Source: a virus (taxonomy: Duplodnaviria > Caudoviricetes). Taken from it: DNA of 58,123 nt. The stretch's first letter is position 1; the number at the start of each line of letters is the position of its first letter. Location: positions 1-58,123 of the IMG/VR virus record IMGVR_UViG_3300028025_003736, one strand, 5' to 3'. This document shows positions 4,144 through 34,545 of the stretch, piece by piece. Below the pieces are notes generated by a model that was not told where the DNA came from, did no database searches, and saw nothing but the letters and a program-made list of their open reading frames with translations. A program made the translations under genes and the position numbers.

Positions 4144-4198
4144 AGTTGTAATTTTGATTAAAGTTATAATATAATTGTAAATTAGCAAAAATATTTTT

Positions 4199-22090: not shown

Positions 22091-25000
22091 ATGTCATTAA
22101 GCAAAACTCCAAGTAACGAAGGTCCTAAAAAGCCTACACCAGAAGAAATGTCTCGTATCACTAGATTCATGTCTAGTAGGATTGGTAAACCAAAGCCAAA
22201 GCAAGTAGACAAAGCTGCCGTTAAACAGGCTTTTGAAAAGGCTAAAGAAAAGGGTGTAGTTCCAAAAGCTCTAGAAGTTATTGCACCTATTACAGTAGCC
22301 CCAATAAAAGCTATTGATGCATCTAGGACAGCAGAGTCGGATGCACTAATTAAAGGGGATAAGGAGGCCATTAATACAGCTCTAGAAGGGTATAATGCCA
22401 ATAGGGTTCAGCAAGGATTTATTGAGGCTGATGCTTTTACAAACACTATAAATAGGATGGCGTCATTTGATGGAATAAATACTCCCACTCCAGGCTCTGG
22501 TGCATATAATCAATACAAGGATTTAATAGACTTTAAAAAAAATGATTTATCACTTAGTTCAGATGAATCCGGTAAGCCAATATTTGCCGAGAAGATGGGA
22601 CTAGCGGATTCTTATAAATCTGGATATAATGCATATAATACAGCAATAGCAAGTGGAAAGTATTATCAAGAGAATGACGACAATAAAAATACAAGATTAC
22701 TAGAGAATAAAAGAAGGGGTATTACAGCTGCACCAGAAACAAGATTTACTCAAGAGCCAAATCAGTTTATGGCTACGATTGGAGGGCTTCAGAGGCCAAT
22801 TACAGACGGAGCTGTTATAGGGATTATGACTAGTGCATATGCTTCCGCAACAGGATTTACGGGCCCTGCGTTACAAGCAGCTAGCGGTGTAGGTATGTTT
22901 GGTACTGTTGGGCAGGATATGATAAATTCAAGGTACGGCTCAACTCTTGAAGAAAACTATTTTTTGGCAAGAGAGCAAGGTATTGGTGAAAAAGAAGCAT
23001 ACGGAAAAGCTAAATCAGTTGCAGAGCAAGCAGCTCTTTATGAGACAGCCGTTCAGATACCATTCTCATTTGGTGGGGCTATATCTACAATAGGTAAAGC
23101 AAGGAATCTACCGTCTACAGCCCTAAAGGTTGCGGAGAAACTTCCTGCAATAGATAAGAGCGTAAAAACATTTGCGAGAGGTATAGCAGAGAATTTTAAG
23201 TCTGGTGTACCAATATCTGGTATTGTTGCTCTTAGTAAGGCAGCTACTGACATGAAATCAGAACAGGAAGGAATCAATATCGAGAACAATTTAGAAAGAG
23301 CTATAACTGAAGGTGGACATATGATGGCCATGCACATGGGAATACACACCTTAACATCTGCTCCTAAAGCACTTTCTTTTGTACCAAAGAGCGTAAAGGC
23401 TTTCTCAAAACAATTGCTTGCTGCAGACGAGTCCATTACAATGTCATTTATTGATATTATGGAAGGTGCTGGACTATATGAGCCAGGAACAAAAGATAAG
23501 ATAAAGAAAGATATTAAATCATTTAAGGCTGCAGATAAGAAGACTCCAGATTTTGGCGGAGACAAGGATAGAAAGACAATAGCAGCAGGACTTATTGAGA
23601 AGAGAACTAATCTTGAAAAAGAGATGGCAGGAATAGATAAAGAGTTTCACGCTCCTATTCAAGTCAAGATAGATGAAGTAAATATAAGACTTAGAAAACT
23701 AAACGAAGTATCAAATCCTTTTGAAGTAGAAGTTACTGACGAGGGAGTTCCATTAACAGCTAAAACACAACAAGATGCCACTAAAATCAGCACAGGGGAA
23801 ATCAAAGAAGTCGCTACAGAAGGCGGTGTCAGCCAATATCAGGGACCTGAAGAAAGCAAACCTATCGAAGCCGAAAAGCAAGCAGAGGCCACAACAGCAG
23901 ATACTGGCAATCGCCCTATCAGCGGCCCGGAGGAAGTAGTACAGCCTAAAGCAAATGTCAAGTTTTCTGACCAGATTAGAAGACTTAAGATTGACGAGTC
24001 TATATTGACTGGGGGAGACATGGGTGTTGCTCAGTCTAACATAGCAGGACTTCCAATAGGAATATATAATGCATCTGTTGAAGCTATTGCTATTGGTGTA
24101 GAGGCAGGAGAGACAATTGCTATAGCTGTACAGAAACAAATAAAGTCTTTAAGGGAAGGAGGATACGAGGTGGATGAAGTTAGGTTTACAAAGAATGTAA
24201 ATCTGATTGAGAAATTAAGTACAGACAAAGCAAGAGTATCCGCTGAAGCAGAAATGCAGGGAATTAATTCAGTAGACTATTCTGACCTTCAGAGGTTTGC
24301 TGTTGAGAAGTTTAATGAAAGTGAAGTGTTTAAGGACCCTGTAGAAATGGGAAAGAGGCTAAGGTCTAAGCTATCAGAGAAGATGGATACATCTAATATA
24401 TCTGATGATGTATTTGAAATGATTGGATATGATGCTGTAGTAAATGAAAAACAAGCACCATTCCTACCTGGGACAGCTAAAAGAATACCACTACCAACAG
24501 AATCATACGCCAAAGAGCAGATTCTAACTAACCCTAGAGAGGTTTTTAAGGCGATATACGGAGCTGCTGAAACACAAGCAAAGGGAGTAAAGGAAAGGCT
24601 TTCTATGGCAGCTGATGCTGTCGCAGAGGCAGTATATAAGAAAAGCGGATTAAGGATGAACCCCAAGTCTGTAACAAGGGCTATAAGGATGTTTGTTAAT
24701 GATAACATGGATATTGAAACAGCTTCAATAGCCTTTCAGGAAAACATTAATGATATTACTAGGATGGCTGAAAACTCACAGAAGTTCGGTCAACTTAAGA
24801 AAGCCATATCTGGTATAAGGGCTTCTTCAAAGAGTAAGTCTTTTGGGACAATAGGAACTAAGAAGGCTACTAAGGAAATGGATTTCATGGCTCCGTCTAA
24901 AGTTAGAGACTATGATGAGAACGGGAATGTTCTTGACACTGATACAGCTTTAAATAAATATGAGACTCTACTTGAAGACTATAGAAAGTCTATTAGTGGT

Positions 25001-28577: not shown

Positions 28578-29132
28578 ATGCCTTTTACTACAGCATTCAC
28601 TGTTACCCAAGGCGGAGATTGTTCACAGTTTCAAATAAATGATACCTCTACATACAATATAGAGGGAACAGGAACATTCACTGCTAGAAAGGTAACAATC
28701 CAAAAATCAGACGGTACATTTCTCAAGGTTGGTAGCACTACTTATAATGAATATGTATGGCCATTTGCAAGCGGAAATACTCTAACACTTAGTGGAGTAG
28801 ACGTAAACAATGTACCATATATACCTCAAGACTACTCATTCTTGATAACACTCGCTTTAACTTCTTCTTCTCCACAAGGGGGGAGCATTTATAGCAAGCA
28901 AAATACAGCTGTATTGACTTGTTATACAATGAGTGGATTTTATAGTTTTTCAAACAAGATGGCAATAAATCCTTCTCTTGAAAAAGACTATAAGTTTGTT
29001 AAGGATGTGATGAGGCTTTGGATAGAGCAAGAATCTGCAAAGAACTCTGGTATAGATGGTGACTTTCAAAGTTCACAATCGGCTCTAAATAGGGCTAAAT
29101 TCATTATTGACAATCTAACAGTGGGTTACTAA
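28578..29132 (+). CDS. tail hub / fibre attachment protein
   Basis: Beta-rich N-domain with helical C-terminus, immediately before the fibre gene. Confidence 0.5.
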   Translation: MPFTTAFTVTQGGDCSQFQINDTSTYNIEGTGTFTARKVTIQKSDGTFLKVGSTTYNEYVWPFASGNTLTLSGVDVNNVPYIPQDYSFLITLALTSSSPQGGSIYSKQNTAVLTCYTMSGFYSFSNKMAINPSLEKDYKFVKDVMRLWIEQESAKNSGIDGDFQSSQSALNRAKFIIDNLTVGY

Positions 29133-29133
29133 T

Positions 29134-32100
29134 ATGGCATACTCAATTGGTCAGATAACTACAATACTGCTTAAGGCGGATAAGACAATGTACAAACTTG
29201 GAGATGTTGCATACGACAACATGTTTTCCGAGCTTGATGAGGCTTATGACTATGAAAGGGATATTATCTTTATCTACAAGAAAGCTGTTGAGTATGCAGA
29301 TGACTACTTTGTAGGAACACTTAAATTAGACCAGATTGTAGATAGGTTGGCTTCAAAGTTAAATATTTATGACTACGGAACACTCTCTCCTTTATATGTA
29401 GATGTTTATACACAAGTTGACCAGGGGCTAAATGTAATATATGTCCTAAAATCAACAGCGCTTAGTTTAGGGGCAGGACTTACAGGTGATTCGGACTTTA
29501 GCCAATCTGATATTAATATAAACTTAGACTACGCATACCTAGACACAGTGTATGTAATAGATGGCCGGACACTAACAATAAACGGAACAACATACGACCT
29601 AAGCGCAAATAGAACTTGGTCTGTTGGAACAGTAACTTCAGTATCAGCCTTAACTTTAGGTACAACAGGGACAGACTTATCTAGTACAGTTGCAAATAGT
29701 ACAACAACTCCCACTATAACATTAAACGTACCTACTGCATCAGCAACTAACAGAGGTGCTTTATCAAGTGCAGATTGGACTATATTTAATGGCAAACAAG
29801 GTGCGATAATCTTAACCACAACAGGCTCAAGTGGGTCATCTACGCTAATAGGAACAACATTAAATATTCCAAATTACACGCTAGGTGGATTAGGCGGTGT
29901 TCCTGCGTCAAGACAATTGACAATTAATGGTACATCGTATGACTTAAGTGCAGATAGAAGTTGGAATGTGGGTACAGTAACATCTGTAGACATGTCCGTT
30001 CCAACAGGGTTAACAATATCTGGTAATCCAATAACTTCATCTGGAACATTAGCAATAGGGTTAGCGAGTGGATACTCTATACCCACAACAGCAAATCAAA
30101 CTAATTGGACTACTGCATATAATGATAGCATAGTAAGTGCAGCAGTTACAGGAACAACTACTAAGACATTAACTTTAACACAGCAAGATGCAGGTACAAT
30201 AACAGCATCTTGGACAGATATAAATACTGATGCAGTAACTTCTGTTTTTGGCAGGACAGGGGCAGTAGTGGCAGCAGAAGGGGATTATACATTAACTCAA
30301 CTTGGAGATGTAACAATCACAACACCATCAACAAATCAAGTATTAAAATATAATGGAACAGCTTGGGTAAATAGTGCAGATACCGATACAGGTATTACTT
30401 CACTAAATGGATTAACTGCATTAACTCAAACTTTTGCAACAGGAACAAGTGGTTCTGATTTTAATATTTCAAGTGGCACTTCTACACATACGTTTAATTT
30501 GCCTACAGCAAGTGCAACTAATAGAGGTCTTTTATCTACTTCTGATTGGACATTATTTAATGGTAAAGAATCTGCTTTAACATTTTCTTCTCCATTAAGT
30601 AGAGCAACAAATACAATAAGTATCCCTGCTGCTACAACTTCTGTGAATGGATATTTAACTTCTACAGATTGGACAACCTTTAATAATAAGGTAGGTGGTA
30701 GTGGAACAAGCGGTCAGATAGCTTATTGGAATGGTACTGCAACACAAACTGGTTCTGCTGATTTTGCTTGGGATAATACAAATAAATATTTAGTTTCTAA
30801 TATAGGTCTTAGTGGATATGTTAAACTTGCACAAACAGGATGGAATAGCGGATTCATTCAAACTGCTTATTCTAATTTTATATTTGGTAGCAATTTGAGA
30901 TATGATGGTACTCAATGGATATACGACCAATCTGGTTTTGGTGTACAATTTCAGGCAGATAGTTTTAATGGATATTTGCAATTAAATACTGCAACAAGCG
31001 GAACAGGTGGAAATACTGCTACAATTAATCCAAGACTTAGAATATTAAATGATGGTAGAACTTTCTTAGGAACTTCTATTGTTACAGATGATACCACAAG
31101 TTCTTTACAAGTTGGTGGAAGTGGTAGGTTTACAGGAACTTTAAAGTTAGATACAATAAATGCAGCTACTACAGATACAGATAAATTTTTAGTATCTGAT
31201 GGTGGTATTATTAAGTTTAGAACAGGAACAGAAATATTATCAGACATAGGTGGTCAAGGTTCTTTAACTCTAACTACTACAGGAACAAGTGGTGCTGCAA
31301 CCTTAATAGGTAACACATTAAATGTTCCTCAATATGAAGCAGAAGGTAATTATGTTACAACGGCAACTACATTAACCATCAATGGAACTACTTATGATTT
31401 AAGTGCAAATAGAAGTTGGTCTGTAGGTACAGTTACTTCTGTAGGTCTTTCAATGCCTGTAGCTTTTTCTGTTTCCAATACACCAATTACATCAAGCGGT
31501 ACTTTAGCGGTAACAGCAGTCGGTACTTCTTCTCAATATATTCGTGGAGATGGTCAATTAGCAACCTTACCAAGTGGTTCAAGTGGTGGTAGTTCTGTTA
31601 ATTACTACCTAAATGGTAGTGTTAATCAAGGAACTATTGGTGGAAGCGTTTACTATGAAATGAATAGGAGTGCTATTATCGGTGTTGGAACTGATTTTAC
31701 AAGAACAAATGGTAGTGGAAATGGTCTTATAGCACAATTTATTACTGATGTAGCAGACCCAAATAGATTAGAAATACCTGGTGGTGCATGGAACTTTGAA
31801 ATGTATTTTTCAGCTTCTTCAAGCGGTGGAAGTCCTACATTCTATGTTGAATTATTAAAATATAATGGAACAACATTTACAAGTATTGCTTCAAATGTAT
31901 CAAATGCTGAAGTAATAACAGGTGGTACAACTATAGATTTATATGTATCATCTCTTGCCGTTCCTCAAACAACATTACTTGCAACAGATAGATTAGCAAT
32001 TAGGGTTTATATAACTACAAGTGGTAAGGATATAACCTTACACACAGAAGACAATCATCTTTGCGAAATAATTACAACTTTTGCTGGAGGTGTAAGTTCA

Positions 32101-34545
32101 CTAAACGGATTAACTGCTAACACACAATATTTTGCAGTAGGAACAGCAGGAACTGATTTTGCAATTAGTTCTTTATCGGATACGCATACATTTAATCTCC
32201 CTACTGCATCTGCAACAAATAGAGGGGCATTAAGTTCTGCCGATTGGACAACATTTAATGGTAAGCAAAACGCTATAACATTAACTACTACAGGAACAAG
32301 TGGGGCTGCAACATTAGTAGGTGCAACTTTAAATATACCACAATATCAAGCAGCAGGTACTTATGTTACATCGGTTACAGGTACAAGTCCTATTGTATCA
32401 AGTGGAGGTACAACTCCTGCTATTTCTATTCCTGCTGCGACTACATCTGTGAACGGATATTTAACTTCAACAGATTGGACAACATTTAATGGTAAGTTTA
32501 ACCTTCCATCCCTTACAAGCGGTTCAGTCCTATTCAGCAACGGCACAACCATAGCACAAGACAATGCTAACTTCTTTTGGGATGATACTAATAATAGATT
32601 AGGTATAGGTACTGCAACTCCATACTCAAGATTATCAATTAATGGAAACGCTGCAGATTTTAACTCTGCAAGTACAAAAATATCTGTATATGCTGATGGT
32701 TCTTCTACTTATGGTATTGGATTTTCAAAATATACGAATTATGGATTAGGTCTTTTCTCGGCTAATAATTTTACAGATTCTCCAAGAGTATTTATTGAAA
32801 GTACAGGTAACGTAGGTATAGGTACTACAAGTCCTGCTGCTAAATTAGAGGTTGCTGGAGATATTAAAGTATTAAGTACAGGTGCAGCTATTTATGCTTC
32901 AACTGAAGGTGTATATTTTGCTGGTACTGTAAATGGAAATTATTTATCATTTTCAACTAATAGTGCCGAAAGAGCAAGAATTACAAATGGTGGTAACGTA
33001 CTAATAGGTAATACAACAAATAGATTAAGGTTAACGGTTAGTGGTGCTGATGCAAATGCACCTACATTAGGAACTGCAAGCGGTACTACTGTTTTTGCAA
33101 ATGCAGCAGTTACTACACAATATGGTATGAACTTCGGCATATCAAGTTCGGGATATGGGTGGATTCAACAACATAGATTTGATGGTACTGCAACTGCATA
33201 CGCATTAGCATTACAGCCAAGTGGTGGTCGTGTATTGATAGGCACAGCAACAGACAATGGCACAGATAGGTTGCAGGTAAGTGGGAGTTCCACATTCTCA
33301 AGTAGTGTAACGGCAACACAGTTTAATGGCAAGTTATATACAGGTGCAACATATAATTTTGAAGGTGGATATTTTGGAAAATCAAGTGGAAATGGTGGTG
33401 CTTTATTAGAATTATTAGGACATGGCGGAGTAAGTACATCAAATGGGTTTGCTCTTAGATATGATACAGATGTTAGCGGAAATTTATTATTTCAGTATGC
33501 AGGTTCTCAAGCTACATATGGTGCTTTATCATACTCTACGATATTACAATTAACAAGTGCAGGTGCAGCCACATTTAGTTCATCTGTAACGGCTTCATCA
33601 CTTATTAAGAGTGGTGGTACATCAGCACAAATATTAGCAGCAGATGGTTCGGTAATAACAGCAGGAACGAACATCACAATAAGTGGTGGAACGATAAGTG
33701 CAAGTGGCGGTGGTACAGTTACAGGAACAGGAACAACTAACTACATACCTAAATTTACAGGTGCAAGTGCATTAGGGGATAGTGCAATATCACAATCAGC
33801 AACTGGCAATAGAATATTGATAGGTGCAACTGATGATACTACAAGTAAATTAAGGGTAAGTGGTGCAACAAGAACATCAACATTGATTGTTGATGCAGGT
33901 ACTGCATCTGTAGCACCAATAAACTTTACATTATCAAGTGCTGCATTAATGACAAACAACCTCGCTGGAGATGTAGAGGTTAATAGTGCTGGTCATTTAT
34001 ATTATAGTTTTTGGGATGAAATTAGGGGTGTAGTAAATGCAGAACAGTTCTTAACAAATACATCTACATATACACTAACATCTACAATATCATCACAAAA
34101 ATTATTTAACGTAGGGCCATTATCTGGTAATGCTGGGGCATTAACTGTAAAGCCTTCTACGACATATTTTTTTGAATGTATGTTTTCATTAACATCAATG
34201 AGTTCTACAAGTGGTAGTGCAAGATTTGATTTAAAAGGTGCAGGAACAGCAGGGGTATCAAGTACAGCTTATTCTGCAACTGGAATTGATATAAGTACTA
34301 TTACAAGTAGTAATTTTCTTAATGGAGTATTTAGCAATAGTATAATTTCTACAGAATTAGTTACTGGTGGAGTTGGAACAGGTATGTGGGTACAAATTAA
34401 AGGGATATTTAGAACTAACGGTACTGCTGGAACAATAATCCCATCAATTCAATTAGTAACGGCAGCAGCAGCAATAGTAGGTGTTAACTCATTTTTTAGA
34501 GTATATCCAATAGGCTCAGATACTGCGAATTATCAAGGTCAATAA
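29134..34545 (+). CDS. long tail fibre protein
   Basis: 1803 aa, T/G/S-rich, internal repeats, NRLGIGTATP and GNVGIGTTSP fibre motifs common in Bacteroidetes phages. Confidence 0.88.
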   Translation: MAYSIGQITTILLKADKTMYKLGDVAYDNMFSELDEAYDYERDIIFIYKKAVEYADDYFVGTLKLDQIVDRLASKLNIYDYGTLSPLYVDVYTQVDQGLNVIYVLKSTALSLGAGLTGDSDFSQSDININLDYAYLDTVYVIDGRTLTINGTTYDLSANRTWSVGTVTSVSALTLGTTGTDLSSTVANSTTTPTITLNVPTASATNRGALSSADWTIFNGKQGAIILTTTGSSGSSTLIGTTLNIPNYTLGGLGGVPASRQLTINGTSYDLSADRSWNVGTVTSVDMSVPTGLTISGNPITSSGTLAIGLASGYSIPTTANQTNWTTAYNDSIVSAAVTGTTTKTLTLTQQDAGTITASWTDINTDAVTSVFGRTGAVVAAEGDYTLTQLGDVTITTPSTNQVLKYNGTAWVNSADTDTGITSLNGLTALTQTFATGTSGSDFNISSGTSTHTFNLPTASATNRGLLSTSDWTLFNGKESALTFSSPLSRATNTISIPAATTSVNGYLTSTDWTTFNNKVGGSGTSGQIAYWNGTATQTGSADFAWDNTNKYLVSNIGLSGYVKLAQTGWNSGFIQTAYSNFIFGSNLRYDGTQWIYDQSGFGVQFQADSFNGYLQLNTATSGTGGNTATINPRLRILNDGRTFLGTSIVTDDTTSSLQVGGSGRFTGTLKLDTINAATTDTDKFLVSDGGIIKFRTGTEILSDIGGQGSLTLTTTGTSGAATLIGNTLNVPQYEAEGNYVTTATTLTINGTTYDLSANRSWSVGTVTSVGLSMPVAFSVSNTPITSSGTLAVTAVGTSSQYIRGDGQLATLPSGSSGGSSVNYYLNGSVNQGTIGGSVYYEMNRSAIIGVGTDFTRTNGSGNGLIAQFITDVADPNRLEIPGGAWNFEMYFSASSSGGSPTFYVELLKYNGTTFTSIASNVSNAEVITGGTTIDLYVSSLAVPQTTLLATDRLAIRVYITTSGKDITLHTEDNHLCEIITTFAGGVSSLNGLTANTQYFAVGTAGTDFAISSLSDTHTFNLPTASATNRGALSSADWTTFNGKQNAITLTTTGTSGAATLVGATLNIPQYQAAGTYVTSVTGTSPIVSSGGTTPAISIPAATTSVNGYLTSTDWTTFNGKFNLPSLTSGSVLFSNGTTIAQDNANFFWDDTNNRLGIGTATPYSRLSINGNAADFNSASTKISVYADGSSTYGIGFSKYTNYGLGLFSANNFTDSPRVFIESTGNVGIGTTSPAAKLEVAGDIKVLSTGAAIYASTEGVYFAGTVNGNYLSFSTNSAERARITNGGNVLIGNTTNRLRLTVSGADANAPTLGTASGTTVFANAAVTTQYGMNFGISSSGYGWIQQHRFDGTATAYALALQPSGGRVLIGTATDNGTDRLQVSGSSTFSSSVTATQFNGKLYTGATYNFEGGYFGKSSGNGGALLELLGHGGVSTSNGFALRYDTDVSGNLLFQYAGSQATYGALSYSTILQLTSAGAATFSSSVTASSLIKSGGTSAQILAADGSVITAGTNITISGGTISASGGGTVTGTGTTNYIPKFTGASALGDSAISQSATGNRILIGATDDTTSKLRVSGATRTSTLIVDAGTASVAPINFTLSSAALMTNNLAGDVEVNSAGHLYYSFWDEIRGVVNAEQFLTNTSTYTLTSTISSQKLFNVGPLSGNAGALTVKPSTTYFFECMFSLTSMSSTSGSARFDLKGAGTAGVSSTAYSATGIDISTITSSNFLNGVFSNSIISTELVTGGVGTGMWVQIKGIFRTNGTAGTIIPSIQLVTAAAAIVGVNSFFRVYPIGSDTANYQGQ
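29569..32492 (+). repeat. modular peptide repeats in tail fibre shaft
   Basis: LTINGTxYDLSAxRxWxVGTVTSV x3; PTASATNRGxLSxxDWTxFNGK x3; LTTTGxSGxxTLxGxTLNxPxY x3; ISIPAATTSVNGYLTSTDWTTFN x2; SLNGLTAxTQxFA...THTFNL x2. Confidence 0.85.

Follow-up and report, generated by a model that had tools for sequence, protein, structure and literature searches.

Small genes that lie complete within another frame of a larger gene are known from several bacteriophages, such as Rz1, which is embedded in the +1 frame of Rz in phage lambda and its relatives, and the nested genes of T7 and of the microviruses. Here we describe what is very likely a further case in a 58,123-nucleotide (nt) stretch of viral DNA (Duplodnaviria; Caudoviricetes), positions 1 to 58,123 of the IMG/VR record IMGVR_UViG_3300028025_003736, called the window hereafter: a real, separately translated gene at 23775–23939, lying wholly within the +1 frame of a gene for a protein of 2150 amino acids (aa), the host gene. 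As in the known systems, a complete small gene sits in another frame of the same strand inside a larger phage gene, here with a putative start of its own, and by analogy both products would be made. Unlike Rz1 and Rz, the small gene belongs to a family whose members mostly stand alone, its host is a giant gene of a virion module, the overlap falls in a linker predicted to be disordered, the nested frame appears to be the more constrained one, and related phages have either a nested or a split layout at this site.

A second comparison is offered by the cargo and internal proteins of crAss-like and T7-like podoviruses. In crAss001, the cargo genes gp45–gp50 follow the muzzle gene gp44 (Bayfield et al. 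2023, PMC10172136), and the host gene of the window likewise lies downstream of a muzzle-like gene; in the phage record MW202675.1, a protein carrying the small module is encoded two genes upstream of 'internal virion protein D'. The host protein differs in showing no detectable similarity to gp45, gp47 or any PDB chain, and crAss001 itself has no member of the small family at an expect value (E) of 1 or less. DUF6496 and PHROG 2423, two families without known function, resemble the nested peptide in length, basic charge and a C-terminal K-Q-x-x-A-I-A-x-S-type motif, the window peptide scoring under the DUF6496 cut-off. Searches of the literature on crAss-like or Crassvirales phages with overlapping, nested or embedded genes found nothing relevant, and the term DUF6496 was absent from the papers searched, supplementary files being outside these searches.

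The nested open reading frame (ORF) starts with the ATG at 23775, stops with the TAG at 23937–23939 and is offset by +1 from the host ORF. Its 54-aa product, MPLKSAQGKSKKSLQKAVSANIRDLKKANLSKPKSKQRPQQQILAIALSAARRK, is very basic, with an isoelectric point (pI) of 12.0 and 15 K+R for a single D+E, and the host-frame translation of the same DNA has a pI of 4.26, with 12 D+E and 5 K+R. At 0.515, the G+C fraction (GC) of the overlap exceeds that of the host gene (0.376) and that of the window (0.357), and just 2 of 3864 sliding 165-nt windows reach it. A reading made earlier from the letters and ORFs of this stretch (the sequence-only reading) had reported this 54-aa ORF and its start, an A-rich leader, an acidic host-frame reading and a locally higher GC, all of which were borne out.

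Homologous copies were collected from viral contigs with a degenerate DNA pattern. At least 120 stretches matched it, and with the window and the related locus L004 added, 118 ORFs were obtained, 97 of them unique. Among the 97 listed unique ORFs, 20 lie inside open runs of 475–2678 codons, 9 inside runs of 63–288 codons, and 68 are uncovered. Related loci compared with the window are designated by L numbers. The nested ORF is intact from ATG to stop in L001, L003 and L004, and open in L005 up to the contig end. L001 is the closest relative, with a host protein 71% identical to that of the window; L004 and L005 keep the nested ORF within the gene of another giant protein, which exceeds 2665 aa.

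The pattern of substitutions follows the nested frame. Between the window and L001, 441, 305 and 1084 substitutions fall on host codon positions 1, 2 and 3 over the whole gene (2141 codons), and 14, 7 and 3 over the 50 aligned codons of the overlap, so that host position 3 is changed in 3/50 overlap codons versus 1081/2091 elsewhere (Fisher p = 7.9e-12). The comparison with L003 gave 721, 560 and 1053 substitutions over 1740 codons and 30, 10 and 9 over 56 overlap codons, with host position 3 changed in 9/56 codons versus 1044/1684 elsewhere (Fisher p = 5e-12). Change in the overlap is concentrated on host position 1, which is position 3 of the nested codons. At the protein level, the nested peptide differs at 7 of 54 residues from that of L001 and at 15 of 54 from that of L003, and the host-frame reading of the identical DNA at 22 of 52 and 32 of 53, respectively; host-frame differences amount to 18/50 in the overlap versus 22/100 and 19/100 in the flanks. 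The same holds in a wider sample: of 190 pairs of the 20 nested loci, 41 passed a filter of 3–30% nucleotide divergence and at least 40 aligned codons, and in all 41, which share ancestry and are hence non-independent, nested position 3 was the most changed and host-frame amino acid differences exceeded nested ones. A conserved +1 ORF and suppressed synonymous change in homologous host genes, which the sequence-only reading had suggested looking for, were both found, and the closed +1 frame in close relatives that it had named as counter-evidence was seen in none of L001, L003, L004 and L005; its other counter-evidence, a lack of stand-alone homologues, is contradicted by the family described below. 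A look for RNA runs containing this stretch returned none. Contigs of four DNA runs over 23300–24400, for which 40 of 100 variant places were listed, add at least three natural variants within the nested ORF (23825, 23891 and 23918), all at nested third positions and, by our own codon reading, silent in the nested frame and altering the host frame.

A further signature was found in the use of T. At nested position 3, T occurs in 1 of 54 codons, and the third-position figure for 20 further genes in the window is 39.7% (binomial p = 5e-11). The share of T is 3.0% across nested copies versus 29% in stand-alone copies of the same syntenic group. Because this position is the first base of the host codon and all stop codons begin with T, its avoidance keeps the host frame open; the avoided T precedes many AAR, AGR and GAR codons in the nested frame. 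The GC-richness of the overlap and the Glu-, Gln- and Thr-rich host reading follow from the same avoidance, and the acidic, polar make-up of the linker would largely be a by-product of Lys and Arg codons read one base earlier. The peptide family alone does not keep the host frame open, since 68 of the 97 listed family ORFs have 1–11 stops in the host-equivalent frame. These patterns indicate that selection acts mainly on the nested frame, with a second constraint, visible as the near-absence of T, that keeps the host frame open.

Regarding the start of the nested gene, its frame is closed by a TAA 7 codons before the ATG, and 12 of the 20 bases preceding the ATG are A, a content reached at 1.8% of the interior positions of the host gene. 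The predicted folding energy around the ATG is -4.2 kcal/mol, the mean of 26 annotated starts being -4.37 and that of the gene interior -8.53. A motif like that of Shine and Dalgarno (SD) precedes just 2 of the 59 putative gene starts in the window, the leaders being A-rich; together with the crAss-type muzzle domain, from this we infer a Bacteroidota-type host. Among the matches listed, an SD-like motif stands before the nested ATG in 7 of the 20 nested loci, six of the seven having a GC of at least 0.43, and the 13 loci without it have a GC of 0.34–0.39 and 9–15 A in the 20 upstream bases. The distance from the upstream in-frame stop to the ATG is 3–26 codons at 18 of the 20 loci and 82 and 150 codons at the remaining two. 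Ribosomes would start at the nested ATG on the messenger RNA (mRNA) of the giant gene, an AT-rich, SD-less phage of Bacteroidota type using the A-rich, weakly structured leader and GC-rich relatives an SD sequence at the same place. Given the frame-specific substitutions, the avoidance of T and these putative ribosome-binding features, the true dual coding put forward by the sequence-only reading can be considered well supported, and we hold it with high confidence. The locus would then be a clean natural example of dual coding, in which one frame carries the protein constraint and the other becomes a disordered linker through a no-T wobble rule.

The likeness to stand-alone small basic phage proteins, which the sequence-only reading had pointed out, was confirmed by searches with profiles and hidden Markov models. 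A profile built from five nested peptides and run against 1.84 billion representatives returned 139 proteins with E <= 1e-3, of which 19 reach E <= 1e-10, the lowest E of a stand-alone protein being 1.6e-22; most of the 139 are 45–70 aa long and begin with MPL. The window peptide matches phrog_2423 over residues 1–54 (E 0.002, 19.1 bits, in a PHROG library that has no curated cut-off), and this family matches four of the five nested peptides, with a best E of 8.5e-6. DUF6496 also matches four of the five at E <= 1 (best E 0.0011), and we treat the nested peptide as a probable distant relative of DUF6496, not counted as a member. In a family alignment of 30 sequences that includes the window peptide (A4), M1, P2, L3 and N21 are invariant and L25, R38, Q42, A45, I46 and A47 are conserved in at least 90% of sequences, and the window peptide carries all ten residues.

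Other searches returned less. A word-based homologue search with the 54-aa peptide gave zero candidates, and tblastn against GenBank phages found no match for the nested peptide or for that of L078. A homologue was present in 18 GenBank phage records, namely 17 Caulobacter-phage genomes (phiCbK and relatives), where it is always annotated as 'hypothetical protein', and MW202675.1, where the module forms the N-terminus of a 193-aa protein followed by a putative acetyltransferase and then 'internal virion protein D'. In the ESM Atlas, one neighbour cluster carries DUF6496 on 17% of its members. The module was also observed in putative in-frame fusions, at the C-terminus of 135–205-aa proteins, whose N-terminal parts are unrelated and which have a G-G-K junction in common before MPLKK, and at the N-terminus of 154–163-aa proteins and of a 2435-aa repeat protein (representatives P0006, P0007, P0009, P0011, P0012; P0099; P0114, P0115, P0117); these longer proteins are gene calls, for which a real fusion and an over-extended call are both possible.

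Comparison of nested and stand-alone copies suggests two interchangeable layouts at one syntenic site, with an upstream gene (A), the small gene and a downstream gene (B) in a row, or with A and B as one ORF that would run through the small gene. Among the matches listed, the small gene is covered on its own strand by 24 open runs of at least 150 codons. Every one of them is in the frame that lies one base upstream of it, the other sense frame being used by none. In a tight group of 11 stand-alone loci (L009, L030, L044, L060, L071, L075, L077, L082, L090, L091 and L105), an upstream gene of 414–434 aa (321 aa in one, at a contig end) is followed by its stop, 1 nt and the ATG of the small gene. 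In 10 of the 11, the next gene, of at least 566 aa (918–1211 aa where complete), starts within about 1 nt of the small-gene stop or overlaps it; the exception is L105, where the first 60 nt downstream are free of genes. At six of these loci (L009, L071, L075, L077, L082 and L091) both flanking genes are in the same frame as the fused hosts use, and the small gene has 3–8 stops in that frame. In L033 and L101, the small gene comes about 30 nt after a gene of 1361 or 1383 aa and is followed by one of 1256 or 1267 aa.

The genes flanking stand-alone copies are homologues of the matching halves of fused hosts. Residues 179–1038 of the downstream gene of L101 align with residues 726–1603 of the L115 host (E 1e-21), in which the small gene lies at codon 557; the downstream gene of L009 aligns with residues 1132–1648 of the L050 host (E 3e-44; small gene at codon 471), and residues 100–468 of the upstream gene of L033 with residues 206–585 of the L099 host (E 1e-16; small gene at codon 641). 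Homologues of two further genes of the window, coding for a 1344-aa muzzle-like protein and a 184-aa protein, flank nested and stand-alone small genes alike. A tree of 84 distinct peptides, itself poorly resolved, requires 8 changes of the nested state, of which well-supported branches force at least 3. The interchanges would span phages of AT-rich and GC-rich hosts with a constant relative frame.

Three other explanations of the nested ORF have to be weighed. The peptide could be made, in whole or in part, by a +1 ribosomal frameshift shortly before 23775, as a truncated fusion of the N-terminal 560 host residues with the basic module. In-frame fusions of the module occur among the gene calls (C-terminal in proteins of 135–205 aa, N-terminal in the 2435-aa protein and the 193-aa phage protein), and the window and 10 of the 19 other nested loci have an AAAA run in the interval from the upstream stop to the ATG. 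However, no slippery site is shared, since 9 of the 20 nested loci, including L003, L119 and L004, have no homopolymer of four or more bases there, and in 11 of the 20 just 3–7 codons separate the upstream in-frame stop from the ATG. Moreover, the invariant M-P-L is the N-terminus of the stand-alone proteins, and SD motifs or A-rich leaders stand at start-codon distance. Independent initiation is thus the best reading, and a frameshift-made fusion an improbable, minor rival.

The small gene might also be a relic, swallowed by the fusion of two neighbours, still open and no longer expressed or needed. The split layouts at the same site make such a history plausible, and expression of the nested ORF is a prediction from the sequence; yet the third-position bias and the better-conserved nested protein are kept in all 41 nested–nested pairs, nested copies persist across hosts that are 25–46% identical or not alignable, and putative start signals are retained, which leaves a relic quite improbable. 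As the overlap is the most GC-rich stretch of the window and +1 runs of 55 codons arise by chance in the same gene, one could further imagine a non-coding DNA or RNA signal (structure, promoter, packaging) or a constraint on the host protein, with a +1 frame open by chance. This explanation is already contradicted by the substitution pattern, whose three-base periodicity follows the nested frame, by the pairwise test and by the family matches, and we consider it extremely improbable: the host frame is less conserved in the overlap than in its flanks, and the product matches independent small proteins and is predicted to fold with high confidence.

Several points nevertheless weigh against a separately translated gene with a virion role. 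The longest stop-free runs of the +1 frame in the host gene are 60 (the nested ORF), 55 and 55 codons, among 164, and the length of the nested ORF is within chance, so that the case is carried by conservation. The census is biased, since its pattern demanded ATG-CCN-YTN and other family motifs, which in part predetermines the nested share and the invariance of the ATG. The window peptide remains below the Pfam cut-off for DUF6496 (PF20106; 13.9 versus 24 bits, E 0.072). Internal initiation within a translated ORF is expected to be inefficient, and separate translation, start signals included, is deduced from features of the sequence only. Concerning a virion role, the phiCbK homologue sits among transfer RNA genes, not virion genes (one record inspected), crAss001 gave no family match at the threshold stated above, and the function is proposed from gene neighbourhood only.

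Of the two readings of the overlap, the widespread small gene is probably the older and the linker of the giant gene the newer, because the family is far wider than any host gene, its frame is under the stronger constraint, and the nested codons dictate a host reading that is predicted to be disordered. Fusion and fission are both possible as the direction of change. We give an even chance to a scenario of recurrent reverse overprinting, in which giant virion or cargo genes took in an old small gene as two large neighbours became one ORF, with at least three interchanges and a small protein that must share the mRNA of the giant proteins. If so, read-through one base out of frame created a new disordered linker whose sequence is set by the codons of the small gene. 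With both layouts present at a single site, it becomes testable whether the change was one of fusion or of fission and how old each frame is.

In this scenario, that the layouts interchange always in the same relative frame suggests that the small protein is made from the same mRNA and at the same place as its giant partners. Among ten proteins encoded next to stand-alone copies, six match tail, portal, head, virion-structural or endolysin-like PHROGs, one matches a family of unknown function and three have no match. With the position in a cargo block, these matches suggest, tentatively and with somewhat less than even confidence, an accessory protein of basic charge in the virion module, produced alongside giant internal or cargo proteins. 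It may neutralise charge, partner with nucleic acid, or help in assembly or loading. The sequence-only reading had offered a DNA-condensing or cargo-loading peptide as a possibility; the results reach as far as an association with virion-module genes. Such a role would tie an uncharacterised family (DUF6496-like, phrog_2423) to the virion or cargo module and provide a starting point for its function. Since a 54-codon ORF inside a 6.4-kb gene escapes gene callers, the protein is missing from the annotations of these phages, and a small-protein family can hide within giant virion genes across many uncultured phages.

AlphaFold2, run with the A4 alignment, predicts the nested peptide to be a helical hairpin, with helices at residues 11–30 and 40–52, a predicted local distance difference test score (pLDDT) of 93.2 and a predicted template modelling score of 0.74. 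Foldseek searches with this model gave no match against the PDB at E <= 0.001, and against BFVD weak matches alone (E >= 0.29), to uncharacterised small phage proteins. The homodimer prediction, with a score of 0.02, favours neither outcome. A model of host residues 440–720, obtained from a 6-sequence alignment, has a segment without secondary structure at fragment residues 109–184 (pLDDT <50), with preceding and flanking helices at pLDDT 80–89; the overlap, at fragment residues 123–178, lies wholly within this segment, which is thus predicted to be disordered. The giant gene would read the nested DNA as a disordered acidic linker between folded parts. The features discussed are collected in Table 1.

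Table 1. Positions of the nested gene, its host and neighbouring features in the window
Feature	Position	Strand	Remarks
Putative nested gene	23775..23939	+	54 codons + TAG; very basic DUF6496-like / phrog_2423-like product
Nested-gene leader	23745..23774	+	Inside host ORF; A-rich, little predicted structure, no SD motif
Host gene, 2150 aa	22091..28543	+	Block downstream of crAss-type muzzle-like gene; no Pfam/PDB match
Host-frame linker	23732..23959	+	About host residues 548–623; acidic, poorly conserved, predicted disordered
Muzzle-like virion gene, 1344 aa	16040..20074	+	Pfam crAss_MUZ_C, E 7.1e-8, 33.2 bits (cut-off 27)
184-aa gene downstream of host gene	28578..29132	+	Syntenic marker common to stand-alone loci
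1803-aa gene	29134..34545	+	No PHROG or Pfam match
Antisense open frame, 128 aa	23753..24139	-	Overlaps host gene around nested ORF
Antisense open frame, 170 aa	23053..23565	-	Overlaps host gene around nested ORF

The host protein shares 42–72% identity with its relatives. No match was found by blastn of the host gene against GenBank phages, and PDB sequence searches with the host protein, the host alignment and the family alignment found nothing. The name of cargo gene, given by the sequence-only reading, is a label by position only: the place downstream of the muzzle-like gene agrees with it, and the comparison with crAss001 gp45 and gp47 gave no detectable similarity. The overlap corresponds to host residues 562–617, entirely inside the linker. 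Directly behind the nested stop, relatives carry either a deletion or inserts of about 150 aa that differ between loci (alignment A6), the inserts lying at 4166–4620 in L003 and at about 4530–5000 in L119. L120 has a GNAT domain immediately behind the nested ORF (PF00583, 24 bits versus a cut-off of 20.7; host residues 529–585). The L003 insert was also considered as a GNAT acetyltransferase and rejected, having no Pfam match and no similarity to the acetyltransferase of MW202675.1. The site just after the nested stop looks like a hotspot of module insertion in the giant gene; in MW202675.1 a separate acetyltransferase gene follows the module gene.

The two antisense open frames around the nested ORF probably result from the overlap being GC-rich and poor in stops. 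In L001 and L070 the small ORF is likewise covered by antisense runs, of 180 and 210 codons, and in L003 it is not. The window record has a CheckV completeness estimate of 54% and a single copy of the family.

In the window, the block is ordered as the muzzle-like gene, genes of 219 and 430 aa, the host gene, the 184-aa gene and the 1803-aa gene. The muzzle-like protein, which also matches phrog_14478 (virion structural protein), marks a crAss-type tail and cargo block. The 184-aa protein has BLASTP matches of 30–80% identity in L001, L119, L033, L101, L105, L091, L060, L030, L009, L077, L082 and L044. Short segments of the 1803-aa protein are 70–88% identical over 24–150 aa to large proteins of related loci, in several copies and at shifted positions, and by its sequence it looks like a mosaic, repeat-bearing, fibre-like protein.

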